A stretch of DNA of 57,405 nt, taken from a virus (lineage: Duplodnaviria; Caudoviricetes). Shown piece by piece: positions 20,904-57,315 of the stretch. The first letter of the stretch is position 1; each line of letters starts with the position of its first letter. The position numbers were made by a program, and so were the translations under genes. Location of the stretch: the IMG/VR virus record IMGVR_UViG_3300044609_000868, positions 1 to 57,405 of that record, one strand, 5' to 3'. Under the pieces are notes generated by a model. The model saw nothing but the letters and a program-made list of their open reading frames with translations, was not told the origin of the DNA and searched no databases.

Positions 20904-20929
20904 CCTGACTTCAGACTGGGCCGCTGTTC

Positions 20930-32033: not shown

Positions 32034-32323
32034 GATTCGCCTCTCGCGACGGCAGTGTCACGTACGACGAGGGCCTCGAGACTGCCTTTGAGCTGTTTCG
32101 CGATGGTCGCATTCAGGATGCGGCCATGATGTTCCTCGTCTACGCCGACCCCGACGCGATTGGCATCGTCGGCGAGAGTGAATACAACGCTCTCGCCGCT
32201 CACTTCAAAGAAATGATGGCGTTTGTGAAGCTCTACGAAATGATCTGCGACGAGCTTGCGCAGCCACTGCTTAGCGAAGACGGGAAGCCGGCGTACAAGG
32301 TTGGTCCTGCTGCCGAGGGGTAG
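32030..32323 (+). CDS. Hypothetical protein
   Basis: ATGA coupling to thyX. Confidence 0.6.
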   Translation: MRFASRDGSVTYDEGLETAFELFRDGRIQDAAMMFLVYADPDAIGIVGESEYNALAAHFKEMMAFVKLYEMICDELAQPLLSEDGKPAYKVGPAAEG

Positions 32324-33419
32324 CGACAGCTTCGCCGATGCGCGCCACGGCAGCCTTAGCGGCGTCGTCGATCAGGAAGGCGTAGCGCGCCGTCGTCTGC
32401 GGTGATGTGTGCCCCAGGAGCTGACCGATCTGGCTGAGCGACACGCCCACCGACAGTCCGATCGAGGCGTAGGAGCGGCGCAGATCATGCACCAGCAGGC
32501 CCTGAATGCCGGCCAGCTGCAGCAGCTCCTGCCAGAGCTTCTGGTAGCCCACCAAATGCCCGCCGTTGTCGCCTGCGATAATCCATTCAGTGTTTGAGTT
32601 GCGTCTCAGCTCTCTCAAGATGCGAATCGCTGCAGGAGGAAGATGCACTACGCGATCTTTGCCGGTGCTGTTGCCGGTCTTGTGAGCATCAATCGGGATC
32701 ACCAGCAGACCTGCTTCCTCGTTGATCCAGTCCCATCGGCCGCGGCATATCTCACCTACTCGGCAGCCAGTCAGCAACAGCAGCCGTATCAACTGGGCAA
32801 ATCGCCAGCGCAGTGGCGTGGTGGCTATCGCGTCCAATGCGGCCTCCAGCCGCTGCCGCTCTTCGCCTGACAGGTAACGCTGCCGCTTGCGCTCGCCGTT
32901 GCCCGGCACGTTGGCGCAGGGGTTGGTGGGGCATAGGCCCCAGAGGATGGCGAGGTTGAATGCCTTGCGCAGAACGGCCAGCGTCCGGTTGGCCTGGGTG
33001 CGGGCGATGCCGTTGATCAGTTGCATCACCTGCGCGCTGGTGACGGCCTGGAGCTTGGTGGTGCCGAGCTTTGGCAGCAGGTGCGTCCGCCAGATGCTTT
33101 CGTAGCCGGCCCGGGTGGTTGCTCGCAGCTTGACGTAGTGGGCCGCTTGCAGTCGCTGGTACAGATCGGCCACGGTTGGCCCGCTGCGCAGCTCCTGTCG
33201 CTTGCTGGTGGGTGCCTCGCCACGAGCGACGGCTGCAAGCAGCTTGTAGGCCTCCTCTCGGGCCAGCGTGCGGCTGATGATGCCCACCCGGCCGATCTTG
33301 TGATGCTGCTGCTTGCCGCTGGGCTCGCGGTAGCGCAGGTACCAAGTTTCAACACCGCTGGGCAGCCTCAGGATGCCAAGGCCGGTAACTTTTGAGTCTG
33401 CAATCCATTCGCGCGCCAT
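32271..33419 (-). CDS. int: Tyrosine integrase with N-terminal arm-binding domain
   Basis: Catalytic 'TGCRVGEI', 'HDLRR', 'LLGH', 'TTARYA'; N-terminal 'WYLRYR...KIG....L..AREEA'. Start taken at MAREWIAD. Confidence 0.93.
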   Translation of the reverse strand: MAREWIADSKVTGLGILRLPSGVETWYLRYREPSGKQQHHKIGRVGIISRTLAREEAYKLLAAVARGEAPTSKRQELRSGPTVADLYQRLQAAHYVKLRATTRAGYESIWRTHLLPKLGTTKLQAVTSAQVMQLINGIARTQANRTLAVLRKAFNLAILWGLCPTNPCANVPGNGERKRQRYLSGEERQRLEAALDAIATTPLRWRFAQLIRLLLLTGCRVGEICRGRWDWINEEAGLLVIPIDAHKTGNSTGKDRVVHLPPAAIRILRELRRNSNTEWIIAGDNGGHLVGYQKLWQELLQLAGIQGLLVHDLRRSYASIGLSVGVSLSQIGQLLGHTSPQTTARYAFLIDDAAKAAVARIGEAVATPRQQDQPCTPASRLR

Positions 33420-33676
33420 TCGCGCAGATCTCCGTGATTTCGCGCGACTCTGCGCGAACGAGCGGTAAAGCGCAAGAGCGGATAGATGTAATGAATCAAG
33501 ACTTTGGGTAAGTTGCGGTAAAAAGCGTGAGATACTAAAAGTTGATTTGTAATCAGTAGGTCGGCGGTTCGAGTCCGTCCGGGGGCACCATTTAACCCAA
33601 TAAAAACAACGCACTGCAGGCAGGCTGCCTGTAGCCAGCAACACCCAGTGGTGCCGTTCGCGCACTATTCGCGCAG
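33407..33676. mobile_element. attP region: TTCGCGC arm-type repeats flanking a tRNA-derived core
   Basis: TTCGCGC-containing motifs near 33407, 33418, 33438, 33450 (inverted), 33656 and 33667, on both sides of the tRNA fragment. Confidence 0.7.
33541..33590 (+). pseudogene. 3' half of tRNA-Thr(UGU), putative attP core
   Basis: Anticodon loop TTTGTAA, T-arm GGCGG-TTCGAGT-CCGTC, acceptor strand CGGGGGC-A-CCA; no 5' acceptor strand or D-arm upstream. Confidence 0.85.
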
Positions 33677-33762: not shown

Positions 33763-33996
33763 ATGGCGAGCTACCTGCTTGAGGTGTCGGCCAAGGTCGT
33801 GGTGCATGCGGATGAGGACGATCTCGAGGAATTCATCGAGAACACCTACGCCCGCATAACTGAGTTCATCCCGTCGGACGAGCACATCGTCCACATCGAG
33901 CTGGATGCCTTTCCCCTACCCCAGGAGCCAGGTGGATCATCAGATCTCGGAGACGGAGCTGATTCCGAGGAAGGAGGCGAAGCTACGGTTTCGTGA
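33763..33996 (+). CDS. Small acidic hypothetical protein
   Basis: ATG start, phage-like codon use. Confidence 0.6.
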   Translation: MASYLLEVSAKVVVHADEDDLEEFIENTYARITEFIPSDEHIVHIELDAFPLPQEPGGSSDLGDGADSEEGGEATVS

Positions 33997-34249
33997 TCAG
34001 ATCCTCCTGCGGTGGGACTACAAGTGCGCCTACTGCGATGAGCCACTGGGTCGATCAGCCACGCTGGATCACGTTGTGCCCAAGGTGAAAGGTGGCACCA
34101 CTGAGAAGCGGAATCTGGTGGCCTGCTGCCTTGCGTGCAACAGCCTGAAATCGGGTCAGGACTGGCAAGAGTTCTTCCGGGCTCAACCGTTTCATTGCGG
34201 CCTTCGGGAGCAGGCAATCCTCGACTGGATCAGTCAAGGCAGGCAATAG
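33932..34249 (+). CDS. HNH endonuclease
   Basis: 'CAYC...TLDHVVPKVKGG....NLVACCLACNSLK'; GTG start after GGAG. Confidence 0.88.
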   Translation: MDHQISETELIPRKEAKLRFRDQILLRWDYKCAYCDEPLGRSATLDHVVPKVKGGTTEKRNLVACCLACNSLKSGQDWQEFFRAQPFHCGLREQAILDWISQGRQ

Positions 34250-37480: not shown

Positions 37481-37808
37481 CGAGCGCCTCCAGTGCGCGG
37501 CGGATGACTGCCATGGCCGTCTGATCATCCGTGCCAGCCTCAACGGCAGCCCAAGCCTGCAAGGCTCGCTCCTTCAAGCTCGGCGGCTTGGGGCGGCGGA
37601 GGCGGCGTAGTTCAGCGCCCCACTCTCTGCCGTGCCCGATCTCACGCTCAACCCACTCACAGCACGCCTCCAGCTCTTGATCAGCACCCCAGCGGGCAAA
37701 GCGCGTGGCGATGAACTGCTCATAAGTCATTTCCGCCGGGGTGGATGGATTGCTGCGCAGAAAAGCCTGCACTAGCTGCGGCGGCGGAGTGATCAGGTGG
37801 TCAGTCAC
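37473..37808 (-). CDS. Hypothetical protein, 'GADQELE...RPKPPSLKE.AL...IRRALE' family, copy 2
   Basis: Paralogue of 36611-36940. Confidence 0.65.
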   Translation of the reverse strand: MTDHLITPPPQLVQAFLRSNPSTPAEMTYEQFIATRFARWGADQELEACCEWVEREIGHGREWGAELRRLRRPKPPSLKERALQAWAAVEAGTDDQTAMAVIRRALEALDD

Positions 37809-38194
37809 GCCTCCACCTCCGACGGCATCAACATCTGCCGGATCCGGGCAGCGGTAAACGGCCCGCGGGAGATCCGATTCCAGATCACCTTCATGGCCAC
37901 CACGGCCTCCTGGTCAGCCATGCAGCTGCCGCATTCGTCCAACGCCCTGCTGACGGCCTCATGCGTCTCGCGGTAGAGCACCGGGTCGGTCTGCATCAGT
38001 GCATCGCGCCAGGTGGCAACCTCGCTCAGCGCCTGCATGCCGAAATTCTTCAGCTGCATCAGCTCTGCCGAGCTGGCCATCATGACCTGCTCAGCAGTGA
38101 ACAGGCCACCACGAAGCAGTGCGTTCTGCGTGCGGACTGACATGTACTTGGCAGTCTCCGGCACCAGCCGGAAGTCGTCTTCAGTTGGGTGCAT
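37805..38194 (-). CDS. Protein with RNA polymerase alpha C-terminal domain-like fold
   Basis: 'MSVRTQNALLRGGLFT.EQV......ELMQLKNFGMQALSEV' aligns by eye with alpha-CTD 'L.VR..NCL....I......L......L....N.G..SL.EI'. Confidence 0.75.
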   Translation of the reverse strand: MHPTEDDFRLVPETAKYMSVRTQNALLRGGLFTAEQVMMASSAELMQLKNFGMQALSEVATWRDALMQTDPVLYRETHEAVSRALDECGSCMADQEAVVAMKVIWNRISRGPFTAARIRQMLMPSEVEA

Positions 38195-38755: not shown

Positions 38756-39238
38756 TCACACTTCGTAAAAACTGCAGTCAGCCGCGAAGCTGGTGCCCTC
38801 GTCGAGCGGGTCCGGGAAGCCCAGTTCGCAGCCGACACCGCCCCAGTGCTGGCATTCGGTGCAATCGCGCCACTGCGGCCGCCGCTTCAAGCTCGGGAAC
38901 ACCTTCGTCCAGGTCTTGCCAGCTCGGATCTGCTGAATCGCCTGGCGCGACACACCGAGCTCGGCGGCCAGAGCAACGTCCGAGGTTTGCCGATCGGTCA
39001 GCGCGCGGCGGACGTGCGCCAGATCAAGCTTCTTTCGTCTTGGCTTGCCAGGCCCGCGTCGCCGCCGGCGCTTCTTTCTGTCAGGCCCGAACACAGTCCA
39101 GCGCTCACCGCAGTCACTGCACTCCCACCGGCGACGGATCAAGCCATCGGCGCGGGTACGTGTTTCACGGACAAAACGGTTGTTGTGCTCACAGACAGGC
39201 GTGTCTAGCGTTGATGAATCATCGCTGTTGAACTCCAT
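38756..39238 (-). CDS. Zn-ribbon + HTH + Cys-cluster putative regulator
   Basis: 'VRETR....IRRRWECSDCGERWT' (NrdR-type zinc ribbon), HTH 'LAAELGVSRQAIQQIR', 'CTECQHW...CELGFP...C'. True start uncertain. Confidence 0.7.
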   Translation of the reverse strand: MEFNSDDSSTLDTPVCEHNNRFVRETRTRADGLIRRRWECSDCGERWTVFGPDRKKRRRRRGPGKPRRKKLDLAHVRRALTDRQTSDVALAAELGVSRQAIQQIRAGKTWTKVFPSLKRRPQWRDCTECQHWGGVGCELGFPDPLDEGTSFAADCSFYEV

Positions 39239-45267: not shown

Positions 45268-46635
45268 ATGCTTCGACCCCGTCAACAAAAAGCGATTCAG
45301 GATGTCCGGCAGGCTTATCGGGCCGGCTACAGGGCGCCGCTCCTTTGCGCAGCAACCGGTTTCGGCAAAACCCACACCGCTGCCGAAATCATCAAATCAG
45401 CCGTTGAACGCGGCAACGATGTCTGGTTCCTCGCTCACCTGCGCGAGATCCTCGACGACACCGCCCGCCGTCTGGACAGCGCCGGCATCGAGCACGGCTT
45501 TGTCATGGCCGGCATGCCACGCAATCCGTTCAAGCCGGTGCAGGTGGTCTCCGTTCAAACGGCCGTTCGCCGGCCTGTCGTGCGCAAGCCCGGGCTCATC
45601 ATCATTGATGAGTGCCACCTAGCCGTGGCTGAGACGTACCAAAAGGTGCTCGATGCAGCTGGTCGCCCGCCGGTGCTCGGTCTTACTGGCACGCCCTGTC
45701 GCCTTGATGGCCGCGGCCTTGGCGAGCTCTTCGACACCATCATCCCCACCTGCTCCACCGGTGATCTCATCGCCGAGGGGCTTCTCGCTCCCGTCCGCTA
45801 TTACGCCCCGACCAAGCCAGACTTAACCGGCATCCGCTCCCAAGCGGGTGACTTCGCCCTCAACCAGCTGGCCGAGGCCGTCGACAAGCCCTCCATTATT
45901 GGTGACGCCGTTGCTCACTACCGCAAATACGCCCACGGTCGCCGCGCAGTCGCCTTCTGCGTCAACATCAAGCACGCAGAACACACAGCTGCTGCCTTTG
46001 CTCAGGCCGGCTACCGCGCTGTCGCAATCTCCGGCAAGTCGACCCGCGAAGAGCGGCAAACCGCGCTAACCGGGCTCCGCCAGGGCACCATCGACATCGT
46101 GTGCAACTGCGCGCTATGGGTCGCCGGTGTCGACTGCCCCGAGATCGGCTGCGTCATCCTGCTCAGGCCGACCAAGAGCCTGACGATGTACCTGCAGTCC
46201 GTTGGCCGCGGCCTGCGCACCGCGCCGGGCAAGCCCGACCTCATCGTTCTCGATCACGCCTCTTGTGTGTTCACCCACGGCATGCCGCAGGATCCACGCG
46301 AGTGGACGCTCGATGCCAAGCCCAAGAAATCAAGCAAGGCCCCAGCTGTCACCGAGTGCCCCAGCTGCTACGCCTGCCACCCGCCGGCGCCGGTCTGCCC
46401 TTGCTGCGGCCATGAGTACCGCCGCGAAACGGTGGCACGTGGCCCTGAGCAGGTGGACGGCGAGCTGGTGGAGCTTGATGCCGAAACACTCCGCCGCGAA
46501 CAGCGCCGCGAACAAGGCAAGGCGCAAACGCTCGAGGAGCTCATTGAGATCGGGCGGCGGCGCGGAATGAAAAGTCCCCACGGGTGGGCAAAGCATGTGC
46601 TGGCCGCCCGGCAACGCAAGCAGAGGGCAGCATGA
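45268..46635 (+). CDS. SF2 DEAD/DEAH-box helicase with C-terminal Zn finger
   Basis: 'LRPRQ', 'ATGFGKT', 'IDECH', 'LTGTP', 'QSVGRGLR', CxxC...CxxC. Confidence 0.93.
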   Translation: MLRPRQQKAIQDVRQAYRAGYRAPLLCAATGFGKTHTAAEIIKSAVERGNDVWFLAHLREILDDTARRLDSAGIEHGFVMAGMPRNPFKPVQVVSVQTAVRRPVVRKPGLIIIDECHLAVAETYQKVLDAAGRPPVLGLTGTPCRLDGRGLGELFDTIIPTCSTGDLIAEGLLAPVRYYAPTKPDLTGIRSQAGDFALNQLAEAVDKPSIIGDAVAHYRKYAHGRRAVAFCVNIKHAEHTAAAFAQAGYRAVAISGKSTREERQTALTGLRQGTIDIVCNCALWVAGVDCPEIGCVILLRPTKSLTMYLQSVGRGLRTAPGKPDLIVLDHASCVFTHGMPQDPREWTLDAKPKKSSKAPAVTECPSCYACHPPAPVCPCCGHEYRRETVARGPEQVDGELVELDAETLRREQRREQGKAQTLEELIEIGRRRGMKSPHGWAKHVLAARQRKQRAA

Positions 46636-46868
46636 CCATCGGCGATCCCAACCTCACCGAGCGCGACTGGCATACGCATCCGGGCCAAGCGCATTTCGCT
46701 GACCCGTCCATCGGCGCCACCTGTAAGCAGTGCGAGTTTCTGACACCTCGCCCCTACGTGCAGATCAAGCGCTTCTACTGCGCCAAGGCCAAGGCCATGG
46801 CCGGCAACTGGCTCAAGCCGATCCCTCAGAACGCCATCGCCTGCAAGTATTTCTCGCGGCGCTCATGA
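46632..46868 (+). CDS. Small Cys-rich protein
   Basis: 'PGQAHFA...TCKQC...C.K...ACKYF'; ATGA coupling. Confidence 0.6.
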   Translation: MTIGDPNLTERDWHTHPGQAHFADPSIGATCKQCEFLTPRPYVQIKRFYCAKAKAMAGNWLKPIPQNAIACKYFSRRS

Positions 46869-46893
46869 TGGACCCAGCGCCCTGCCCCGAGAC

Positions 46894-47265
46894 GTGTCCA
46901 ACCAGGAAACCGAAGTCCAGCAGCGAATCCGCCTCGCAGTTGGCACTCTTCCCGGTTTCCGCGTCTGGCGAAACAATTCCGGCAAGCTCCCCGACCCTCG
47001 CACCGGCAGGTGGGTGCAATTCGGGGTCGCATCACCAGGGGGGTCGGATCTCATCGGCTACAGGTCCATCACCATCACGCCCGACATGGTCGGACGCACC
47101 GTCGCCGTCTTCACAGCCATTGAAGTCAAGACGGCCACTGGCCGAGCCACGCCAGAGCAGCGTCGCTTCATCGATCACATCCGCACCGCCGGCGGAATCT
47201 CTGCCATCGTCCGCACCACAGCTGAAGCGCTGCGAATCGCAACAGAGCCCTTCCGAGGTGTCTGA
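46894..47265 (+). CDS. VRR-NUC domain nuclease
   Basis: 'RNNSG', 'GGSDLIG', 'AIEVKT..GR...EQ..F'. Confidence 0.88.
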   Translation: MSNQETEVQQRIRLAVGTLPGFRVWRNNSGKLPDPRTGRWVQFGVASPGGSDLIGYRSITITPDMVGRTVAVFTAIEVKTATGRATPEQRRFIDHIRTAGGISAIVRTTAEALRIATEPFRGV

Positions 47266-47343
47266 CGAACTGCAACGCTTCTTCCGCAAACTCGTCGAGT
47301 GGTTCCCGGAGCCGACCGACGAGGAGATGCTCCGCTGTCGCCA

Positions 47344-48111
47344 ATGACTGCTATGCTTCGACCGTTCACACACAGTGACAAGACTGTGACAATCAGACCG
47401 ATTGAGACCCGCTACGCCGGGCATCGCTTCAGGTCGAGGCTCGAGGCTCGCTGGGCGGTGCTGCTCGACAGGCTCAACATCCGTTGGCTTTACGAGCATC
47501 AAGGCTTTGAAACACCTCTTGGCCCCTACCTGCCCGACTTTTGGCTACCGGAGCTCAACACGTTCCTGGAGGTAAAGCCGGGCATCTGGAGCTCGGATGA
47601 GGCCTACAAACTCGAGCAGCTCATAAGGGCCCAGAAGGCTTATGGCGCCTTCGGACTTCCGTTTGACAGCGACCAGATTGTTTCCAGCCTTTATCCAGTT
47701 GACGAAAACTTTGAGCGCCTGCACCCATGGCCAGCCGCTCTGCCTCGGCCCGCGTCTTGGGATTCGTTTCCATTACCAAAAGCCGCATCGATCGGGTGGG
47801 ACAACATTTGTTGTCCTGCTTGCGGTGAAGATAACGTCCATTTCAAGCCGCCTCAATACCTGACTGGCGACTATCCACACCGCCACGTTCGAGATCGCGG
47901 GCCTATTACAGCAATTCCCATGTGGAGCGAGAACTGCGACCACCAATGGGAGCTGGTGATCGCCTTCCATAAGGGTTCAACGTCGATGCAGTTTTGCCTA
48001 CCTCACGATCGCAACACATCGCCGCTTGAGCTAGCCCTTGAGGGACCTGGTGGTGCCGCTGCTGTCGCGGCCGCACGCACAGCCCGCTTTGAACACGGCG
48101 AAACCCCATGA
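47344..48111 (+). CDS. PD-(D/E)XK-like nuclease with inserted Cys/His module
   Basis: 'FRSRLEARWA', 'YLPDFWL', 'LEVKP', end 'ARFEHG'; alternative GTG start at 47386. Confidence 0.75.
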   Translation: MTAMLRPFTHSDKTVTIRPIETRYAGHRFRSRLEARWAVLLDRLNIRWLYEHQGFETPLGPYLPDFWLPELNTFLEVKPGIWSSDEAYKLEQLIRAQKAYGAFGLPFDSDQIVSSLYPVDENFERLHPWPAALPRPASWDSFPLPKAASIGWDNICCPACGEDNVHFKPPQYLTGDYPHRHVRDRGPITAIPMWSENCDHQWELVIAFHKGSTSMQFCLPHDRNTSPLELALEGPGGAAAVAAARTARFEHGETP

Positions 48112-48263
48112 CCACCCCCAACCACCAGCGCCTCGTAGCGCTCGTTCGCGCCGATCAAAAGGCCTGGCTCCAGTCCAAAGTCACACCGCTTAGTTCGCTT
48201 GCAGACGTGGTCCGCGAAATCATCGATCAAGCCATTGAAAATGACATCCGCAAACAATCCTGA
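48108..48263 (+). CDS. Small ribbon-helix-helix-like protein (51 aa)
   Basis: Translated by hand: 'RLVALVRADQKAWL...SLADVVREIIDQAI'; ATGA coupling. Confidence 0.6.
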   Translation: MTTPNHQRLVALVRADQKAWLQSKVTPLSSLADVVREIIDQAIENDIRKQS

Positions 48264-50883
48264 TTTTGACGCCGCACGCCAGTTCCTAGCTGCGCTCGGC
48301 AAACCCAAGGGCGCTATCCGCTTGCGTGGCTTCTACGCGAAGACCGATCCACGCAAGGCCGACGACAAAGGTCGAAAAGGCGCCCCCACTAAATCCCTAA
48401 TGGAAGAATGGGTCGCGGATCGTCGCGGCGTCTATGTCGTGATCAACAACGGCGGCGACAACGACGCCGACATCACTGAGTGCATTGCGTTTTTCATCGA
48501 GTGGGACGACAGACCCAAGGACTGGCAGGTCACCGCTTGGCGTGAATACGGCCTCCCCGAACCAAGTCTTCAGGTCGACACCGGCGGTAAGTCGATCCAT
48601 AACTATTGGATCCTTTCTGAGCCCGTGGACGCGGTGCGCTGGAGAGCTGTTCAAACGCGGCTGATTGATTACACCAAAAGCGACGCACAGCTGAAAAATC
48701 CTTCGCGGGTCATGCGCTTGCCCGGCATGCCAAACGCCGCGACCGGGGTGCCCGTAGCAATCATCCATCAAACAGAGGAGCGCTACACCGTTGACCAGAT
48801 TGAGGCTTGCATCCCTGAACCAGATCCGGTCTTGGCGGCATCGCCAGACCCCCGCATCGAACGAGCCCGGTCCTTCACCGATTACGAAGCCCAAGGGCTC
48901 GACGAGATCCAGAAGGCCCTCTCCTGCATCCCGCCTCGGGTGCCAGGTAGTGGCACCTACCCGATGTACCGCAACATCCTCTGGGGTCTGATGAAGGCCT
49001 GCGAGGAGGCCGGCAGCTCAGAGCAAACCGCCATCTTGATGATGGCCGGCCACTCCCCGCAGTGGGGCGGTATCGATCAGGTGGCTCGATCAGGTGGCGC
49101 AGAAGTCACTGCTGGCACCTTCTGGTACTGGGCGAAGGAACACGGCTACCGGGCGCCACGGCGGATCATGCCTGGGCCGCCAGAGCTGCGCAGCTTGCCT
49201 ACCGCATCCGTCAGGCAAGTCGAGCCTGAGCCAGTCGTGGAGCCGGATGTCGAGGACGACACTCCTGCGGTTTCCCTACCATTTCGCCCCCTTGGCTTCG
49301 ACCACGGCATCTACTACTACCTGCCCGCAGCTGCCTGTCAGGTCGTCGCCCTCACCGCTGCCCAGCACAACAAGAGCCACTTTCTGACACTTGCTCCCCT
49401 CGAATGGTGGGCAAACGGCTTCGGTAATGAGCGCGGTCGCATCGACTGGGATTCAGCCGTCAACGCCATCCTCGGCTCCTGCATCTCGCAGGGCGTCTAC
49501 GACCCATCCCGGGTGCGTGGCCGCGGCGCCTGGGCTGATGCCTCCCGCGTCATCCTGCATCTCGGCAATCGCCTCGTGATCAACGGGCGCTCGCACCCGA
49601 TCACCAAGCTGCCTCGCGACTTCGACAGCTACTACTTCTACGAAAACGCCAAGGCGATTGACGGCCCCGGCGGCGAGATCCTCTCCGACGACCTTTGCGC
49701 CCGGGTGCGCCTGATCGCTGAGCGCTTCCGCTGGGAGACGCCCGCCTCCGCCAACTTGCTGCTCGGCTGGATCGTGCTGGCGCCGGTCTGCGGCTCCCTC
49801 GACTGGCGGCCGCATATCTGGGTCACCGGTGGTGCCGGCACGGGCAAGACCACCATCCTCAAATCCTTTATGAAGCCGCTCCTCGGAGGCATGTTCGAGG
49901 GCGCGACTGGCGGCACCACCGAGGCCGGCTTGCGCGGTCAGCTGCGCTCCGACGCCATCCCCGTCGTGTTCGACGAGCTGGAGCAGAACGAGCACAAGGA
50001 CAAGCAAACCGTTCAAAACATCCTCGCCCTTGCCCGCATCGCATCGTCCGAGGGCGGAAAAATTTACAAGGGCACAACATCTGGCGGGTCCAACTCCTTT
50101 GAAATCCGCTCAATGTTCTGCTGCTCGTCGATCAATGTTGCCCTGATTCAACGCGCTGACCTCGATCGTTTTTGCGTCCTAAGCCTGCGCAAGGATCACA
50201 TGGACAAGGACGACTGGAACGAATTTGAGCAGGAAATCTTGAGCGCCTGCACTGAAGAAAACGGCCGGCGTCTTGTCGCCCGCACGCTCCAGCAGATCCC
50301 GACGATTCGCAAGAACGCCAAGACCCTTGCAGCTGCTTTGTCTCGGCGCTTCGGGCAGCGTTTCGGTGATCAGTACGGCACGCTGCTGGCTGGCGCCTGG
50401 ACGCTAGAGCCCGGCGGGGGTGGCGAGCTGTCGCTTCAGCAGGCCATCGAGTGGATCAACATGATGGACTGGGAAAGCCGGGAGGTTGATGCCGCTGACG
50501 CCGATGAGGTCAAGTGCATCAACCACATCCTGCAGACCCTGATCCAGGTGGATGGTGGCAAGCGCATGTCGGTGCTGGAGCTTGTCCAGATGGCTCAGCG
50601 CGGCGTGATCTTCGCCATCCCCGGCCGTGACCACCCCTCAGACGAGATCGAGACGATCCTCGGCCGCTACGGCCTCAAAGTGACCGGTGGGCTGCTGGCG
50701 GTCGCCAACAACAGCACCAACCTGCAGGGCTTGCTCAAGGACACCCCATGGGCCGGCAATGCCTATCGGCAGGCTCTGAGGCGGCTCACCGGTGCCACGA
50801 CCAGTAACAACACGATGCGATTCAAGGGCAGCGGCGTTGCACGTGCAACGTTGGTCCCACTTGAGACGCTTGAGACTCTGTAA
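48241..50883 (+). CDS. Primase-helicase (RepB/AEP-like primase, PriCT-2-like region, P-loop domain)
   Basis: 'FFIEWDD', 'VDTGGKSIHNYW', 'NPSRVMRLPG', 'GTFWYWAKEHG', Walker A 'GGAGTGKT', 'VFDELE'. Confidence 0.9.
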   Translation: MTSANNPDFDAARQFLAALGKPKGAIRLRGFYAKTDPRKADDKGRKGAPTKSLMEEWVADRRGVYVVINNGGDNDADITECIAFFIEWDDRPKDWQVTAWREYGLPEPSLQVDTGGKSIHNYWILSEPVDAVRWRAVQTRLIDYTKSDAQLKNPSRVMRLPGMPNAATGVPVAIIHQTEERYTVDQIEACIPEPDPVLAASPDPRIERARSFTDYEAQGLDEIQKALSCIPPRVPGSGTYPMYRNILWGLMKACEEAGSSEQTAILMMAGHSPQWGGIDQVARSGGAEVTAGTFWYWAKEHGYRAPRRIMPGPPELRSLPTASVRQVEPEPVVEPDVEDDTPAVSLPFRPLGFDHGIYYYLPAAACQVVALTAAQHNKSHFLTLAPLEWWANGFGNERGRIDWDSAVNAILGSCISQGVYDPSRVRGRGAWADASRVILHLGNRLVINGRSHPITKLPRDFDSYYFYENAKAIDGPGGEILSDDLCARVRLIAERFRWETPASANLLLGWIVLAPVCGSLDWRPHIWVTGGAGTGKTTILKSFMKPLLGGMFEGATGGTTEAGLRGQLRSDAIPVVFDELEQNEHKDKQTVQNILALARIASSEGGKIYKGTTSGGSNSFEIRSMFCCSSINVALIQRADLDRFCVLSLRKDHMDKDDWNEFEQEILSACTEENGRRLVARTLQQIPTIRKNAKTLAAALSRRFGQRFGDQYGTLLAGAWTLEPGGGGELSLQQAIEWINMMDWESREVDAADADEVKCINHILQTLIQVDGGKRMSVLELVQMAQRGVIFAIPGRDHPSDEIETILGRYGLKVTGGLLAVANNSTNLQGLLKDTPWAGNAYRQALRRLTGATTSNNTMRFKGSGVARATLVPLETLETL

Positions 50884-51133
50884 CGGTTTGGGGCTTCCTG
50901 AAACGGTGGGTGTTACAGCGAGATCCCTTGCGGCGCAACGGATGTAACGTTTGAAACGCTTGTAACGCTTTTTCCCGGGAAAGCCCCATAGAGATATATG
51001 GCCCCAGAGACCCCCTTACCCCCTACTACTACTATCTCTATTTATAGAAATAGTTGTTACAACGTTACAACCCAGTCCCTGCAAGGGGTTTGGCTGTAAC
51101 GGTGACCGTTACAAGACCGTTACAGCGTTACAA
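50879..51133. repeat. Putative replication origin: about 9-10 TGTAAC/GTTACA iterons around an AT-rich core
   Basis: Copies near 50879, 50911, 50943, 50961, 51055, 51063, 51095, 51107, 51118 and 51126; core with CTATTT-ATAG-AAATAG. Confidence 0.75.
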
Positions 51134-51137
51134 GACC

Positions 51138-51347
51138 ATGCCGACCACTCCCGACCACCACCGCCTCGCCCTATCCCCCACCAGATGGCCCTCCCTGCCC
51201 CGTGGAGCGGCCGTGAAGGTCTACATGGGCTCTCGGTGGGCCTCAGGCACCTGGCAGGGCTTCCAGGGCGATCGTGGGGCTATCTGGCTGGGCAGGGAGC
51301 AGCGACTGGTGCTTTGCGGGGATGCGCGCAATGTCAGAACGGCCTAG
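51138..51347 (+). CDS. Hypothetical protein
   Basis: MPTTPDHH...'VKVYMGSRWASG...DARNV'. Confidence 0.5.
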   Translation: MPTTPDHHRLALSPTRWPSLPRGAAVKVYMGSRWASGTWQGFQGDRGAIWLGREQRLVLCGDARNVRTA

Positions 51348-51410
51348 AGTGCTCCTGAGATGGATCACCGACCCCTGCGGCATGGCGGGGGTTTTCTGTA
51401 GGAGGCGCCA

Positions 51411-52193
51411 GTGGCTGGCCGCACGATCACCTTCGATGCCGATGACCTGATCTCGAACCTGACATCGCTCGAGCGGGTCCAGATGCCGTTTGTGGCTTCT
51501 TGGGCGCTGAACCAGCTGGCGCCAAAGATCCGCAAGCTGCACCAGAGCGAGATGGCGCGGGACTTCAACAACCCGGTGCCGTTCACGGTCAACAGCCCGC
51601 GGTGGGGCGCCAGCGGTTACCAGCCTTGGGTCCGGTCGACGAAGCAGAACCTTGAGATGGGGTTCTGGATTTCGGAGGACGGCGCAAAGGGTCAGGACCC
51701 AGCGCGTTACCTGTTCCCGCAGGTGCAAGAGTCTGGCCGCGGCCGCAAGCCGATCTACGTCACCCGGTTCAGCAAGGCGCTGCGGCGCAAAGGTGTGCTG
51801 GAAGGTGTCGAATATGCGTTGCCGATTCGCGAGAGCAGCGCCGCTCGGCGGAACAGCTACGGCAACATTTCGCCGGGGCAATACACGCAGGTTTTGTATT
51901 CAATCGGTGCGATGACAGATTTCACCGACCGTCGCTACGGGCAAGCAAAGAAGGCGCCGTCAAGAGAGTATTTTGTCGTGCCCAGCTCTGCACCCGTCAG
52001 CGGCCGCCGGAGCACGCTGACGCCTGGTATTTATCGGCGCAAGAGTAACAATATCGCGATGTTGTTCAAGTTCCTGCCTGAGGCGCCAGATGTGACGCCG
52101 AAGTATGACTTCTATGGCAACACGATTGAGTGGGCAGAGGATTACTTCCCTGAGCTGGTGGAGAAGAAACTGCGCGAGGTGATGGGAGGCTGA
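51411..52193 (+). CDS. Conserved phage protein (neck/morphogenesis-like)
   Basis: 'QMPFVASWALNQLA', 'FNNPVPFT', 'NSYGNIS', 'GIYRR'; strong GGAGG RBS. Confidence 0.7.
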   Translation: MAGRTITFDADDLISNLTSLERVQMPFVASWALNQLAPKIRKLHQSEMARDFNNPVPFTVNSPRWGASGYQPWVRSTKQNLEMGFWISEDGAKGQDPARYLFPQVQESGRGRKPIYVTRFSKALRRKGVLEGVEYALPIRESSAARRNSYGNISPGQYTQVLYSIGAMTDFTDRRYGQAKKAPSREYFVVPSSAPVSGRRSTLTPGIYRRKSNNIAMLFKFLPEAPDVTPKYDFYGNTIEWAEDYFPELVEKKLREVMGG

Positions 52194-52257
52194 GCGGCCT
52201 ACTGTTTCGGTTTGTAACGATGCGAGGATTTTGGGGTGGGCGGCGGCCTACTGTTTC
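52194..52257 (+). repeat. 15-bp direct repeat GCGGCCTACTGTTTC (52194-52208, 52243-52257)
   Basis: Exact match; each copy contains a TACTGT -10-like hexamer. Confidence 0.8.
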
Positions 52258-52287
52258 ATCGGACAAGCGCCACTTATCACCTGAACC

Positions 52288-52488
52288 ATGGCCACCACCT
52301 ACATCACTCGAGCAGCTCGGGTGCGGATCATCGACAGCATGCTTGATGCCATGCTCGAGGTCGGCGACATCACCGACAAGCAGATCGCCGAGACCGAGGC
52401 GTGGCTCGCCGGCCTGAGCAACAGCGAGCTCCGGCGTGAGTGCGACGATCGTTGCCCCGAAGAGTGGAGCCGTTTGGTATGCGACTAA
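52288..52488 (+). CDS. Small acidic protein (tandem paralogue 1)
   Basis: Similar pattern to the next ORF. Confidence 0.6.
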   Translation: MATTYITRAARVRIIDSMLDAMLEVGDITDKQIAETEAWLAGLSNSELRRECDDRCPEEWSRLVCD

Positions 52489-52655
52489 AAGCACTCACCG
52501 AAGACCAGCGCATCAACATCGTGGCGGCCCTGGTGAAGCGCAGGCACATCGTTGAAGACCAGATGCTGCAGGCTCGTGACGACCTGATGGAGGCGAGCGA
52601 CGAAGACCTGCACGAGGTCTGCGAGGAGCTCGCACCGGAGGCGTGGCCGACTTGA
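52479..52655 (+). CDS. Small acidic protein (tandem paralogue 2)
   Basis: 'T...R..I...L...L...S..L...C....PE.W' shared with the previous ORF. Confidence 0.6.
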   Translation: MRLKALTEDQRINIVAALVKRRHIVEDQMLQARDDLMEASDEDLHEVCEELAPEAWPT

Positions 52656-52833
52656 GGGGACCCGCGGCATGCCGGCTTTTAGGGACTCGCAGGGGGTCGG
52701 CTTTTAAAGGGGGTATTTAGAAATGTTTTTACACACACAAATCGAACCTTTTCAAAGCTCGTTTGCCGCCGTAGTCATATAAGGCTGCGGCGCATTACTA
52801 TAGTGTAGTGCTGCAAAAAAAAACAGATAGACC

Positions 52834-52915
52834 CGTACATATGTACTACAGTAGTACAAATGTACTATAGTGCTGATGTACTAGAGTACATGCGTACTAT
52901 TGGTACTGATGTACC
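52834..52915. promoter_or_regulatory. Array of five GTAC-N4-GTAC sites resembling cyanobacterial LexA boxes
   Basis: CGTACATATGTACT, AGTACAAATGTACT, AGTGCTGATGTACT, AGTACATGCGTACT and GGTACTGATGTACC at 52834, 52853, 52869, 52885 and 52902. Confidence 0.75.
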
Positions 52916-52933
52916 AATGCGGCCATGCCGCTG

Positions 52934-52955
52934 CCGTTATGGGTTGCCATAACGG
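52934..52955. repeat. Perfect 9-bp inverted repeat CCGTTATGG-GTTG-CCATAACGG
   Basis: Read directly; 18 bp downstream of the GTAC array. Confidence 0.75.
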
Positions 52956-53310
52956 TATTGTTGTGGGCAGTTAGCTACTCAAACTGTTGCTACCAAAGCT
53001 ACAAAAAAACAGCGCGGCCGGTTTGAGATGCGCAGCGCGGCTACGGTGCGGGACCGTTAGCGCAACCCTGCGCAGCGTTTGCTACTGCTACTGTTCGCCG
53101 CTGTTTGTGATGCAAACTGCGCGGTGCGGCTGGCGGCCGGTGTGCGGTGCGCCCCATGCAGGGCGACCTGTGCGCACGGTGCCTGGGGTGCATGTGCCGG
53201 CAGCAACCGGGCCGCCCGGATATCTGGCACAGCCGCCCAGGAGATGGGTTGCCTAGTGGCGGGGGCGCTACCTATAAAGGGCGGGTATCACTCTTTATCT
53301 GTTACCTGCC

Positions 53311-54921
53311 ATGGCCAAGACCCGCACGATCGTTGCCATCGATCCCGCAACGGGCGCCCGCGTCACCCGTCGCACCGCGCGCACCTATTACGCGGCCATC
53401 GTTTGCACCCTGAGCAGCGGAGCCCCATACGCATATGCGTGGGCGGGCCGCGCTGATCTCGCCGCCGCTCAGCTGGCTAAATATCAGCGCTGCTGCCCTG
53501 ATGGTGGCGCCCGGCTTGCCCTCGTGACTGAGGATCCCTGGGCTGAGGCCCCGGCCGCCGCCGCTGTGGCGGCTGAGCCTGAGGCTGCCCCGGTCGCGGT
53601 TGCTGAGCCTGAGGCCGCACCGGTTAACGGCTGCCGCCTGGCTGGCGATGCTCGCCACCTGTTTGCCCTGTTCGCCCGCCGCTACAGCCTGACGACTCCC
53701 CAGTGCTTTGCCTTGCAATCCGAGGCCCTGGGCTGGGCGCGGCGTGTGGCCCTGTGGTGCAACGGTCAGCCCCTGGCCGGCCCGTTCGGTGCGCTCACCC
53801 CTGGCCTGGCCCGCAGGGGTGTGATCACGCTGCAGGGCGCCCGCCGTTCCTGGGCGCCTGATGCCTTGGCTGAGCTTTGGGCGGTTGCTCAGGCTCAGGC
53901 CGCGGCCGAGGGGTTGCGCCCCCTGGCTGCCGTTGCTGAGGCTTGCCCCTCGTCTGCTCTGCCGGTTGAGGCTGAGCTGAGCCCCGCTGTGGTTGCTGAG
54001 CCTGAGGCTGTGGCTCAGCTGGGGTTCGCCACCCTCAACCCTGAAACCGAAAGCTGGGCGGAGGATCTGCCGGCAGACTGCTACCCGCCCGCCCGCTCCC
54101 GGCCCGCGCTGCCGGTTGAGGCCCGCCCAGCCGCCACACCTGAACCCCTCGCCCAGGTGGAGATTGACCCTTACAAGCGGGGCCACTGGCAGCGAACAGC
54201 GATCGGTCCCGACCCTGTGGCGGTTGCTGAGCGCAGGGCAGCCAGGTGGGCTGAGCGCAACCCTGAGCACTCCTACCGGGTGGTGGCGGTGCCTGCCCGC
54301 CCGGTGCTGCAGGGTGAGACTGAGCCCCCGGCCTCGGTTGCGCAGGATGGCCCGGCCCCTGAGCTGCCCCGCCTGCGCGCTGATGCCGCAGCCGGCCGGC
54401 CTGTCAGCCTCACCGCCCTTGCCCGCGCCTTGGCTGCCGACCTGGCCACACCAGCGCCCACCCCTGACGGCCTGCGCGCAAGGGCAGCGGTGCGGGGTGC
54501 CGAGGCTGAGCGGGTGGCCGGTGCTGAGCCATCCCGCGCCCAGGCTGCCGCTGATCAGGCCAGCACTCTGACCGCATGGGCTGACAGCCTGAGCCCCTCG
54601 CCCACGGGCGACGCCTGGGCGGGGCAACCGTGGGACCCTGGCACCCCTGACGCCCGCGCGCGGGTAGCGCTGCAGGGTGAGCGTGTGGCGACCCTGTGGC
54701 CGATTGCGCAGGCTGCCAGGGGCGCTGGGTTTGATCTGCCACCCGTGTGGTGGGCGGATGGCCCGATCCTGGCCGGTGAGCGAACCTATGGGGAGGCCCT
54801 GGCTGCTCTGCCCCTGGGCGCAATTGCGGCAGCCGCTGCCGCCCTGGCTGCCCTGCCGCCCGTCACGACTGCGCAGGATCGCGCGCTCAGGCTGTGCCGG
54901 GGCGACCTGGCCGCAGTGTGA
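53311..54921 (+). CDS. Large Ala/Pro/Glu-rich hypothetical early protein
   Basis: 536 aa ORF with repeated (V)AEPEA linkers; leader GTTACCTGCCATG resembles that of the next gene. Confidence 0.7.
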   Translation: MAKTRTIVAIDPATGARVTRRTARTYYAAIVCTLSSGAPYAYAWAGRADLAAAQLAKYQRCCPDGGARLALVTEDPWAEAPAAAAVAAEPEAAPVAVAEPEAAPVNGCRLAGDARHLFALFARRYSLTTPQCFALQSEALGWARRVALWCNGQPLAGPFGALTPGLARRGVITLQGARRSWAPDALAELWAVAQAQAAAEGLRPLAAVAEACPSSALPVEAELSPAVVAEPEAVAQLGFATLNPETESWAEDLPADCYPPARSRPALPVEARPAATPEPLAQVEIDPYKRGHWQRTAIGPDPVAVAERRAARWAERNPEHSYRVVAVPARPVLQGETEPPASVAQDGPAPELPRLRADAAAGRPVSLTALARALAADLATPAPTPDGLRARAAVRGAEAERVAGAEPSRAQAAADQASTLTAWADSLSPSPTGDAWAGQPWDPGTPDARARVALQGERVATLWPIAQAARGAGFDLPPVWWADGPILAGERTYGEALAALPLGAIAAAAAALAALPPVTTAQDRALRLCRGDLAAV

Positions 54922-55033
54922 CAATCCAGAATCCGCCCACTAGCTAAGAGATCCTGCGCCCACCCGGCCCGATATTTGGTGGGCGCCCGGCGGTGGGCGC
55001 GCTTTACCTGCTACCCGTTACCTGTTGCCTGCC

Positions 55034-55213
55034 ATGCCTACCCGCCTTCTCAACCGTTCCGCTGCCGCCGCGCTTGCCGCCGGCCTGGCCTTCGGTTCCT
55101 GTGCCCTGACCGTGGTGTTCTGTGCTGGCGTTAACCGCGCGCTCGCCCTACAGGCTTGCCGTGACGAGGCCGCGCTAGCCCGTATCCCGGCTGATCACTG
55201 CACCCTGCGCTGA
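55034..55213 (+). CDS. Small membrane/secreted protein
   Basis: Hydrophobic helix 'AAAALAAGLAFGSCALTVVF'. Confidence 0.5.
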   Translation: MPTRLLNRSAAAALAAGLAFGSCALTVVFCAGVNRALALQACRDEAALARIPADHCTLR

Positions 55214-55243
55214 TCGCCATTCCCGTCCTATCGCACCCTTGAA

Positions 55244-55474
55244 ATGACCCGCAACACCCCAAACCAGCTGCACGCCGCCGCTGAGCGTGCCAGCCGCGCG
55301 CTGTTCGGCGCTGATCGCCCGGGTGAACTGTTTTGCCAGCGCTCAGCTACTGGCTGGCACGTTTTCCGTCAGTTCGGCGCCGGCGCTCAGTCTTTGGGCG
55401 AATGCCTGACGCCGGGCGAATGCCGCGCCATGTTGCGCGGTCTTGAGATCGGCGCCGACCTGGCGCGGCCGTGA
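55244..55474 (+). CDS. Hypothetical protein
   Basis: ATG after a pyrimidine-rich leader. Confidence 0.6.
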   Translation: MTRNTPNQLHAAAERASRALFGADRPGELFCQRSATGWHVFRQFGAGAQSLGECLTPGECRAMLRGLEIGADLARP

Positions 55475-55660
55475 CCCGGCCCGATCCGGCGCCATTGCGT
55501 CGCGTAGCCGGCGGCTGGGTTGCCGCATCCGATCCGGCCATGGCTGCCATGCTGGCGGCCGTGCTGGCACGGTATGCGGCCGCGGCCGGCCGCCATGCCC
55601 CATCAGGCGACCGCTGGACAATCAGCGATCGCCACTAGCTCACCTATTGCACTTAGTCCT

Positions 55661-56221
55661 ATGTCTTTACCTCTTTGCCGCGTCGCCACCAACGCAGGCG
55701 ACGCTATGGCGCCGGCCCATTGGGTTGGCCAGCATGTTGCCGTCACTCCGCCGTGTGATCAGGCACGGCGCTTCCCTGTTGTTCGCGGCCAATGGGTGAT
55801 CACCCATAAAGGCTGCGGTCTGCAGGCTGCCACGTTGCTTTGCAGCAAGCGGCAAGCCGTGGCCATCGCCCGGGAGTGGGATCAGCGGATTGGGCTGATC
55901 GATCCCGCGGACGCCCGTTCCTGGCCATGGTGCGAGCAATGGGGCGCCTTAGTGGCGTCGATCAATCGCCCGTGGCAGGCCGCCGCAGAACCCGCCGCCG
56001 ATTCCGCCGATACGGCCGGCGAACTAGCGGCCCGGGCCGGCCTGCCGATTGATCAGGCCGGCGGCGTTCTCCGGATCTGGTGGCGCGGCAAATTCTGGCC
56101 GGCGCCATCCGATGTGGAGCTCGATCTCTGGACCCTGGATTCTGTGGCTGAAACGCCGGACGGCCGAACTGTTGAGCCGGACGCGCCAGATTCTTGGCTG
56201 CGGATTCTCCGCCTGATCTGA
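55661..56221 (+). CDS. Hypothetical protein
   Basis: 'WVITH..CG', C-terminal 'WTLDSVAETPDGRTVEPDAPDSWL'. Confidence 0.65.
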   Translation: MSLPLCRVATNAGDAMAPAHWVGQHVAVTPPCDQARRFPVVRGQWVITHKGCGLQAATLLCSKRQAVAIAREWDQRIGLIDPADARSWPWCEQWGALVASINRPWQAAAEPAADSADTAGELAARAGLPIDQAGGVLRIWWRGKFWPAPSDVELDLWTLDSVAETPDGRTVEPDAPDSWLRILRLI

Positions 56222-56250
56222 TCCCATCTCACACCATCGCACTCTTACCA

Positions 56251-57315
56251 ATGCCCGCACTGATTCGCTCCAATGCCCGCGTCGCCCTGCCGTCTGACGT
56301 GGCTGCTCACCTATGCCGGTTCGGCCTGACGCTGGCGGACGTGTTGACCGATAACAATCCGAAGCTTGGCAAGGGTGCCACGATCGCCCGGGCCGTGATT
56401 CATCACGGCTTGCCGGGCCGTGCCTTGGCTGCCGCGATCAATCCCGCTAATCAGGCGACCGTGGCGCCACGTGGCCACCTAGCGGCCTTGGCAGCCTTGG
56501 CTGAGCGAGAAGGCATGGCAGCCACGGCCCGCGCCTTTAATGCTTGCCCCTGGGCCACGGATGGCTGTTCTTCCGCGTGCCTTGCCTGGGCTGGCCACGG
56601 CGGATTGTCGCCAGCCGTGGCAGCCGCACGCGGTCGACGGACGCTAGCCATGATCGCGGACCCCGCTCTGTACGGTCGAGCGATCCTATGGGCCATCGCC
56701 CGCCAATGGGTGCGCGCGCAAGCCGACGGCCTGCCGCTGGCTGTTCGCTTGCGCGGCACTGATGACCAGCCTTGGCACGTCCGCCGCCTGACGGTCAGTC
56801 TCCCGGAAGCCATCGCGATCCGGCGCCGGTTCGGTCTGCTGATCAGTAATGGCGAGGGGCAGACTCTGGCCGAACTGCTGGCGCCCGCCACGGCTGACGT
56901 GTCAGTGCAGTTGTACGAATACAGCAAAGCACCGGTCGACGGCCCGCTAGGGCTAATCGCTCAGCGCGATGCCGGATGGGACGTAACCGCCAGCCTGGCA
57001 GGCGACCGATCTACGGCCGCGGCAGACGCCATCGCTGCTGTTCGCGCAGGCTTCCGGCTGGCCGTTCCGGTCGATCTGCCCAAAGGCGCACCGATCCCGG
57101 GCCGTGTGCTGATCAGCCATGGCGGGCAGACGCTGCCCCTACCCACGGTTGATGGCGACACCACCGATCACCGATGGCAGGATCCCTCGGCCGTGGCCGT
57201 GATTCTGCGCGGCAAGCGGTCCCGCGGTGCTAATCCGAATCTGGCGGGCTTCATCCTGCCGAATGCTCCGCTGATCCGATTGGCCGATGGCATTGTGCAA
57301 TTGCTGCCGACATAA
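56251..57315 (+). CDS. Gp88-like protein with Cys triad
   Basis: 'NPKL.K', 'CPWATDGCSSACL...G.G', 'RLRGTDD', 'YEYSK', 'VDGDTTDHRW.DP', 'LRGK'. Confidence 0.7.
   Translation: MPALIRSNARVALPSDVAAHLCRFGLTLADVLTDNNPKLGKGATIARAVIHHGLPGRALAAAINPANQATVAPRGHLAALAALAEREGMAATARAFNACPWATDGCSSACLAWAGHGGLSPAVAAARGRRTLAMIADPALYGRAILWAIARQWVRAQADGLPLAVRLRGTDDQPWHVRRLTVSLPEAIAIRRRFGLLISNGEGQTLAELLAPATADVSVQLYEYSKAPVDGPLGLIAQRDAGWDVTASLAGDRSTAAADAIAAVRAGFRLAVPVDLPKGAPIPGRVLISHGGQTLPLPTVDGDTTDHRWQDPSAVAVILRGKRSRGANPNLAGFILPNAPLIRLADGIVQLLPT

Follow-up and report, generated by a model that had tools for sequence, protein, structure and literature searches.

The window analysed here is the whole IMG/VR record IMGVR_UViG_3300044609_000868 of a tailed virus, which comprises 57,405 bases, is rated 100% complete and has no end repeats. 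At positions 52834-52915 it carries a tandem array of five GTAC-N4-GTAC palindromes. We lean slightly towards reading this array, from sequence comparison, as five operators for the LexA protein of a picocyanobacterial host. The array suggests that the virus reads the damage alarm of its host to time part of its programme.

Five tandem LexA-type boxes in an AT-rich gap

The array consists of five in-register 14-mers occupying 82 bp in total, with spacings of 19, 16, 16 and 17 bp:

52834-52847, unit 1, CGTACATATGTACT
52853-52866, unit 2, AGTACAAATGTACT; with its TA flanks a perfect 16-bp frame
52869-52882, unit 3, AGTGCTGATGTACT; one core mismatch (GTGC)
52885-52898, unit 4, AGTACATGCGTACT
52902-52915, unit 5, GGTACTGATGTACC

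This agrees with the initial annotation, which had described five such units in 82 bp at 16-19 bp spacing within an AT-rich gap. Exact matches to GTACNNNNGTAC were found five times in the window, all within 52835-52914, compared with 0.04 expected, and none of 100 shuffles reached five. The matches start at 52835, 52854, 52878, 52886 and 52903, the one at 52878 being an out-of-register junction between units. Where units lie 16 bp apart, the junction forms a further GTAC-N4-GTAC, so that the stretch is in effect a series of GTAC half-sites at an 8-bp pitch.

A scan of both strands with the cyanobacterial LexA consensus RGTACNNNDGTWCB, allowing up to one mismatch, yielded 19 rows, whereas shuffles gave 7.72 on average. 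The five units, each read on both strands, account for ten of the 19, and all six rows with zero mismatches lie inside the array. Units 1, 2, 4 and 5 fit the consensus without mismatch on at least one strand and unit 3 fits with one mismatch, as had been noted from the letters alone. At the sequence level, the array thus conforms to the cyanobacterial LexA box (RGTACNNNDGTWCB / AGTACWNWTGTACT).

The tetranucleotide GTAC is under-represented across the window (86 occurrences, 123.6 expected), and nine of these 86 sit in the 80 bp of the array; the scarcity elsewhere makes the local accumulation more striking. CTAG is also under-represented in the window (ratio 0.57), and the scarcity of both words may reflect restriction avoidance. 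No other 200 bp of the record has a GC content as low as that of 52714-52913 (38%, mean 61.6%), and 395 bp separate the last unit from the next long open reading frame (ORF), which starts at 53311. Tandem Repeats Finder (TRF) reported units 2-4 as a 16-bp tandem repeat. Sites for NtcA, taken here as GTA-N8-TAC, were ruled out, as the spacings between GTAC starts are 8, 11, 8, 16, 8, 8, 9 and 8 bp and never the required 10 bp. When the array was compared by blastn with 50,697 phage records, one 23-base chance match, in an Aeromonas phage, was obtained.

The same box before recA in the likely host lineage

Three genomes were reached through relatives of the phage primase: a Cyanobacteriota metagenome-assembled genome (MAG) holding the related contig L127, Synechococcus sp. 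GFB01 and a Synechococcus MAG. An SOS-type lexA gene was present in all three, scoring 177-179 bits against a cut-off of 111. The motifs VAAG and GDSM and a Lys are kept, corresponding to the cleavage site and catalytic residues of E. coli LexA according to PMC3091678. GTAC-N4-GTAC is rare in these genomes, with 5, 3 and 13 sites compared with 9, 26 and 31 for the reversed control. It lies before recA in all three genomes, and was also found before a umuD-like gene and dprA; upstream of lexA, a box variant, GGTACAnnTGTAT, was observed. Two of the 13 sites in the Synechococcus MAG (G003) are on contigs C256 and C375 (L149, L153), which carry T7-like genes (nozzle, gp14; family-A DNA polymerase).

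For a broader view, 31 genomes of the same family were sampled, and 25 recA loci over the cut-off were used together with those of two other genomes; one split recA and four sub-threshold rows were omitted. One GTAC-N4-GTAC was present at most 500 bp upstream of recA in 23 of the 27 loci, over a genome GC range of 32-69%, and none occurred in the remaining 90,186 bp of these loci. The motif therefore marks SOS genes in the lineage to which we assign the host and is otherwise rare there. The consensus of the host recA box is nnGTACGyyTGTACTA. The box takes up the spacer of the promoter, behind a TTGAYT -35 element, and its flank TACTAn serves as the -10. It lies 119-475 bp before the matched recA start, so that the distance of about 400 bp between array and gene is no argument for a decoy.

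The phage units match the host recA box position by position, including the flank GTACTA, so that the proposed likeness to the cyanobacterial LexA box not only holds but extends to the recA box of the likely host. The consensus given in PMC3091678 (Li et al. 2010) is AGTACWNWTGTACT, and the same paper cites the experimentally defined RGTACNNNDGTWCB of Mazon. The host recA site agrees with that consensus and with the recA and lexA boxes of marine Synechococcus listed there, and unit 1 differs by one spacer base from the box of Synechococcus WH7803 recA (PMC3091678). Part of the predicted LexA regulon responds to mitomycin C (PMC3744912).

Judged from these sequence links, the host of the phage is likely a picocyanobacterium of the Synechococcus/Cyanobium type. 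Related primases were also found in L126 (JAURHQ010000068.1; primase 85% identical), which lies in a Gammaproteobacteria MAG, likely through mis-binning, and in L129 (55%) from a Hyphomonadaceae MAG, which may be a true relative in another host. The contig of L129, inspected for its box type, stops in coding sequence short of the gap.

Conservation of the array and its gene neighbourhood

Relatives were found through the 260-aa protein encoded upstream of the array, through primase alignment and through the motif itself (L003, L004, L126, L127, L230, G054, G078 and G077). Their common gene order is primase, 260-aa protein, two small ORFs, array, spacer, one to four genes including a GP88-like gene, terS and terL, and the spacer behind the array is rich in repeats and 330-475 bp long. 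A search for the array in related phages had been proposed as a check on the initial annotation, and its outcome was positive: an array of three to five units occupies the same syntenic gap in L127, L003, L004, L126, L230, G054 and G078. The flanking proteins of array-bearing phages are 50-85% identical. Among the relatives the GTAC half-sites are kept and the N4 middle bases vary, and the consensus of 22 in-register units from six related phages is TAGTACAtnTGTACTA.

Natural variants 95-99% identical to the window were available from three riverine and freshwater runs of two studies. Of the 40 substitutions listed for them, none lies within 52592-52947 and 17 lie in the 355 bp before 52592; a further 25 differences lie outside the 40 listed.

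By position only, the array heads a block that runs into terS and terL in the window, G054, G078, G077, L126 and L127. The GP88-like gene is the conserved gene between array and terS in the relatives; in G078 it spans the two contig ends into terS/terL, and it adjoins arrays in two unrelated contigs. A homologue of the 233-aa protein encoded in the block lies directly behind the array in G077. In other phages, a homologue of PHROG 1924, the family of the 260-aa protein, is found immediately 5' of terS.

These observations bear on the role first assigned to the array. It had been placed in control of an early region, and the genes behind it had been called early. The divergent early junction at 45193/45268 carries no box, boxes occur nowhere outside 52834-52915, and in the relatives the block runs unbroken into terS/terL, so that it appears to open the packaging or late block. 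A tie to the lysogeny module of the integrase was not upheld either: an integrase homologue was found in only two of the five array-bearing records tested, and arrays also occur in T7-like phages. The homologue in G078 (19786-21132) was aligned across four stop codons and may be decayed.

Arrays in other viruses

Tandem pairs of the 16-bp frame were detected in 50 IMG/VR contigs, compared with none for the reversed control. The commonest gap between units in these contigs is 16 bp (60 of 154), runs of at least four units occur in 13 of the 50, and the largest arrays reach 12 units per ~630 bp. The PrimPol-helicase of the present phage is absent from 39 of the 50, six of which are at least 90% complete, and three of the 50 carry a T7-like RNA polymerase. 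On one T7-like polymerase contig, the boxes flank a consensus TTGACA-18-TATAAT promoter. Neighbours of the arrays elsewhere include DUF7178 (PHROG 3842; best matches in T7-like Synechococcus/Prochlorococcus phages), a cyanophage OMP-like domain, GP88-like proteins and PHROG 1924. Near the boxes of many contigs, among them L190, L196, L203, L208, L218, L229 and L238, and also in run X3, a second palindrome, TTGAGAATGATTCTCA(A/T)T, was observed together with repeated TATGCGC words. This palindrome presumably resembles a Fur-type iron box, and such viral control regions may bring together binding sites of more than one regulator of the host.

Boxes were also present in two cultured phages. In S-CBP42 (host Synechococcus WH7803), two boxes end 20 bp before the RNA polymerase gene; the only proteins that this phage has in common with the window are an endonuclease and an HNH protein, and no regulator is shared (tblastn, E<=1e-3). 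The Synechococcus phage S-CRES3 has a box pair and three more boxes within the 50,000 of its 71,319 bases that were covered. Three identical-frame boxes at 48-50-bp pitch (33030-33141) lie inside the annotated coding sequence gp71, to the right of the gp69/gp70 divergent junction, and the gp71 annotation may be wrong there.

Genome layout

PHROG and Pfam scans gave a lambda-like siphovirus gene set. Compared as DNA with the phage collection, the window matched best the primase gene of cyanophage S-2L, and near-identical DNA occurs in lake, river and other freshwater metagenomes. The main features are as follows:

332-865, + strand, terS; packaging, following the array-headed block once the ends are joined
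759-2711, + strand, terL; packaging, likewise following that block
after terL, portal, protease-capsid fusion and tail genes
29129, endolysin; dCTP deaminase and ThyX genes are also present
32271-33665, - strand, tyrosine integrase
ending at 45193, - strand, leftward operon: dNMP kinase, single-stranded DNA-binding protein, RecT-like protein and exonuclease
45268-52655, + strand, rightward operon: helicase, PrimPol-helicase, 260-aa protein and two small ORFs
48199-50883, + strand, PrimPol-helicase
51411-52193, + strand, 260-aa protein of PHROG 1924 (annotated as 'minor tail protein'), closing the replication block
52288-52488, + strand, 66-aa ORF, and 52479-52655, + strand, 58-aa ORF: two small acidic paralogues
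53311-54921, + strand, first gene behind the array, 536 aa, Ala/Pro-rich, without family; homologue in L127
55025-56221, + strand, three ORFs of 62 aa, 76 aa and 233 aa
56194-57315, + strand, last ORF, GP88-like protein (PF17338, PHROG 1617)

The gap that holds the array extends over 655 bp after the rightward operon and is followed by five ORFs. The 66-aa and 58-aa ORFs lie immediately 5' of the gap in all relatives and gave no Pfam, PHROG or NCBIfam match. Apart from GP88/DUF, searches of Pfam, NCBIfam and PDB sequences gave no match to the genes behind the array, and the Atlas gave no usable one.

Two further ORFs were recorded. A 129-aa protein (37805-38194, - strand) contains a domain resembling the RNA polymerase alpha-subunit C-terminal domain (PF03118, E 5e-7) and, judged from this likeness, may act on host transcription. 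An HNH endonuclease ORF (33905-34249, + strand) lies by the integrase, and its nearest match in S-CBP42 is an unannotated stretch at 21439-21633.

Other elements in the gap

Besides the array, the gap contains the following elements:

52656-52705, + strand, ~25-bp element present twice in direct orientation, GGGACyCGC...CCGGCTTTT; the pair directly follows the stop codon of the last upstream ORF
52765-52793, + strand, GC-rich hairpin lying between the array and the conserved TTTTTACACAC (52726-52736); the GC hairpin at this place differs from relative to relative
52932-52957, + strand, terminator-like hairpin; its 9-bp core is perfect and a T-rich tail follows
52958-53310, + strand, GC-rich spacer with weak repeats (AAACWGCGCGG at 53007 and 53114; GTTAGC-type words)

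The sequence of the ~25-bp element is kept in all five aligned relatives (L003, L004, L126, L127 and G054), and in G054 TRF reports it as a 25-bp repeat of 2.1 copies. Its conserved 25-base word was found in only two known relatives among the viral contigs and in none of the genome contigs, and a consensus fold of the repeats gave no compensatory pairs. The element may mark where the upstream operon ends or represent a further binding site. A TATAGT that has no -35 element stands at 52799-52804 and is conserved in L127.

The perfect 9-bp inverted repeat reported behind the array by the initial annotation is present, with arms at 52934-52942 and 52947-52955 that lie 4 nt apart, and it was flagged by the scan as terminator-like. 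It is not kept in L127, the closest relative for this segment. One population variant has T in place of C at 52948, which would turn a pair of the hairpin into G-U.

In three relatives, the spacer repeats were located as follows:

L004, 7690-7843, 26 bp, at least five copies (the contig ends within the repeats)
L126, 14330-14430, GGTTAGGTG, four copies
L242 (G054), 2295-2446, 26 bp in 3.0 copies and 24 bp in 2.7 copies

The spacer 52958-53310 is a possible replication origin or long leader, as far as its sequence indicates. Tandem direct repeats and an AT-rich stretch do occur near the replication genes, and no initiator family recognising the repeats was found. An origin in this gap, on which the boxes might act, is plausible from the arrangement of these elements. 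A search of the whole window against Rfam returned no family at gathering score; three sub-threshold rows in the gap, to enterovirus and miRNA models, are chance matches.

A pyrimidine-rich word, ..GTTACCTG..CCTGCC ATG, without a Shine-Dalgarno sequence, precedes the start of genes behind the array (53290-53313 and 55010-55037; L003, 7950-8440). The strict form of this start pattern was not enriched in the window (5 matches, 3.25 expected).

Candidate regulators encoded by the phage

No LexA_DNA_bind or Peptidase_S24 domain was found in a six-frame search of the phage, and no CI-type protein among the 57 + 38 + 19 ORFs scanned. These results do not establish the description of the phage as repressor-less, as many small ORFs match no family and a candidate regulator exists: a 160-aa protein with a zinc ribbon and a weak helix-turn-helix (38756-39238, - strand). 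Among five array-bearing records tested, a full-length homologue of this protein was present in two (G078, G075), partial ones in G054 and G062, and none in the complete G077. A host factor more likely fits the array than a phage factor does, to judge from these comparisons. It is favoured by the lack of a LexA or S24 domain, by the motif in 50 contigs of which few share the primase or a T7-like polymerase, and by the boxes in S-CBP42 and S-CRES3 despite almost no shared genes.

Proposed mechanism

In an undamaged cell, LexA dimers would occupy the five sites, and at a packing of 16-19 bp neighbouring dimers would abut. Bound LexA would shut off or roadblock rightward transcription into the block 53311-57315, which, after end joining, would continue into terS, terL and the structural genes. 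DNA damage would activate RecA and trigger the self-cleavage of LexA, so that the sites would empty and the block would be expressed. The array would in this way couple the late or packaging programme, and possibly the firing of an adjacent origin, to the SOS state of the host. As no promoter is recognisable in the gap, we infer only provisionally whether the array would repress a promoter, block read-through from upstream or serve in another role.

Host-LexA box arrays could further represent a widespread, hitherto undescribed control device, by which several unrelated types of cyanophage would sense the SOS state (UV, daylight damage) without a repressor of their own; we regard this broader view as rather improbable. 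Under such a device, LexA would hold the packaging or late block, or T7-like early promoters together with the RNA polymerase gene, and perhaps an adjacent origin. The LexA-dependent hold would amount to lysogeny or pseudolysogeny, released by damage, and the two small acidic proteins might act on LexA in the manner of gp7 of the Bacillus phage GIL01.

Weighing of the alternatives

Several observations weigh against LexA operators. Every step that leads from the motif to LexA binding is one that we infer. The picocyanobacterial LexA box itself is based on computational prediction and expression data, not on footprints (PMC3744912, PMC3091678). The five genome contigs with a related primase comprise three labelled cyanobacterial, one Gammaproteobacteria and one Hyphomonadaceae. 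A promoter scan of 52400-53500 returned no sigma-70-like site, and in manual placement no -35 element fitted at 16-17 bp from any TACTAn, for any unit. No RNA data set was among the sources listed for DNA matching 51400-54900. The gap carries three further repeat families besides the array and looks like an origin; iteron-like tandem repeats stand directly behind the array, clear in the relatives and weak in the window itself. Eleven of the 50 array-bearing contigs carry the PrimPol-helicase of this phage, which ties the array in part to a single replication module. The gene psbA, used as a marker of cyanophages, was found in none of the 50 array contigs, including the nine that are at least 90% complete, so that the cyanophage nature of these contigs rests on a few neighbours. 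Finally, no box was found in S-CBS1, whose genome has a homologue of the 260-aa protein, or in S-CBP2.

Some of these points agree better with palindromes that bind a phage protein or a host protein other than LexA, as unrecognised operators or origin iterons whose likeness to the LexA box is convergence or mimicry. Palindromic iterons bound by a phage initiator are of a known kind; the array lies in the lowest-GC stretch, among three flanking repeat families and, in relatives, beside iterons of 24-26 bp; it stands 1.95 kb behind the primase gene, which 11 of the 50 array contigs share. The 160-aa protein with its full-length homologues in G078 and G075 could be the binding factor, and the two small conserved ORFs always lie immediately before the gap. 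Set against this, the motif equals the host recA box at all informative positions, and it recurs in T7-like polymerase contigs, S-CBP42 and S-CRES3, whose replication systems are different. No regulator is held in common with S-CBP42, the 160-aa protein is missing from the complete G077, and the products of the two small ORFs are strongly acidic, an uncommon property among DNA-binding proteins. The occurrence of arrays without this primase in 39 of the 50 contigs and in T7-like phages argues against the GTAC units as iterons, and not against an origin in the gap. On balance, we judge this explanation unlikely, though it deserves serious consideration.

LexA could also be bound for another purpose: the array, carried on replicating DNA, would soak up LexA and derepress host recA, umuD and repair genes. 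Several high-quality, closely packed sites without a recognisable promoter would suit such a titration, as would the arrays of up to 12 units per ~630 bp elsewhere and their presence in lytic-looking T7-like phages. However, all relatives have the array at one and the same place, heading the packaging block, and a decoy could sit anywhere; the boxes of other phages lie at a gene start or around a consensus promoter, as operators do; and the number of units is modest and differs (3-5) among close relatives. Titration is accordingly considered improbable. A structured RNA or single-stranded DNA element built of hairpins is very improbable. Its single-stranded DNA fold reaches z = -7.3, none of 200 shuffles being as good, and a terminator-like hairpin follows the array; any run of palindromes, however, yields such a z-score, no Rfam family was found, the half-sites are kept with N4 loops that vary without compensatory changes, the number of units varies, and the following hairpin is not conserved. 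Functionless AT-rich repeat DNA, arisen by chance or slippage, is hardly credible. Tandem duplication can multiply short units, and units 2-4 do form a 16-bp TRF repeat, but only 0.04 sites are expected, the position is conserved across phages with flanking proteins 50-85% identical, none of the listed variant substitutions falls in the array, and 50 contigs stand against none for the control. Operators for host LexA are thus retained as the preferred reading.

It is a long-standing question how cyanophages decide whether to kill or to wait, and why natural Synechococcus populations yield phage after treatment with UV or mitomycin C although, to our knowledge, they almost never contain classical prophages that have a CI-type switch. 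If host LexA does bind the array, direct LexA control, which is known from a few proteobacterial and Bacillus phages, would extend to the most abundant phototrophs, with a multi-operator architecture (3-5 and up to ~12 boxes at 16-bp pitch) not described before. The presence of the array in at least 50 viral contigs and two cultured Synechococcus phages makes the question concretely and cheaply testable. A survey of the literature on LexA and cyanophages, which was partial and not exhaustive, found no account of LexA boxes in cyanophage genomes.

Comparison with known systems

The origin of lambda contains four dyad-symmetric iterons by an AT-rich stretch, which are bound by O dimers and lie inside the initiator gene. 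The present array resembles it in having four to five short palindromes at regular pitch in AT-rich DNA near replication genes, with further repeats beside them. The lambda iterons match no host regulator, whereas here the palindromes correspond to the host LexA box, and no initiator was identified.

The genes lexA and recN of E. coli have multiple LexA boxes. Colicin operons have double overlapping SOS boxes (PMC6182141). By analogy, the array could likewise place LexA dimers side by side and give a tight, late derepression of a cell-lethal function. Those systems differ in having two or three boxes rather than five, the proteobacterial box sequence and mapped promoters.

Direct reading of host LexA by a temperate phage is also the feature shared with the PrstA promoter of CTX-phi and with the LexA-controlled antirepressor Tum of coliphage 186 and Fels-2 (PMC9502458). 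In these phages, a single LexA site operates together with a phage repressor (RstR, CI) and controls a replication gene or an antirepressor; unlike Tum of 186 and Fels-2, no antirepressor-like protein is recognisable behind the array.

In GIL01, a tectivirus of Bacillus thuringiensis, host LexA acts at dinBox1/1b of the early promoter P1 and at the paired dinBox2/dinBox3 of the late promoter P3 (PMC6182141). The likeness lies in the proposed silencing of phage genes by host LexA instead of a phage CI, in multiple boxes side by side and in the lack of a classical repressor among the proteins found. In GIL01 the boxes precede capsid, packaging and lysis genes, and by position the array would similarly precede virion genes. 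The two GIL01 boxes are separated by about two helical turns and closely follow a mapped -35, whereas here five boxes at 16-19 bp have no mapped promoter and stand 395 bp from the gene. GIL01 also has boxes at its early promoter, and the early divergent junction of the present phage has none. GIL01 depends on gp7, which is a co-factor of LexA, and on gp6, an activator resembling LexA, and no LexA-like homologue was found here; the two phages differ in host phylum and box sequence as well.

The recA operator of picocyanobacteria has the same 14-16-bp GTAC-N4-GTAC with the flank TGTACTA (PMC3091678). The host gene has a single box between the TTGAYT -35 and the TACTAn -10, whereas the phages have three to five boxes in a row and no recognisable -35. 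The distance to the gene start covers a similar range in both, 119-475 bp for host recA and 330-475 bp for the phages.

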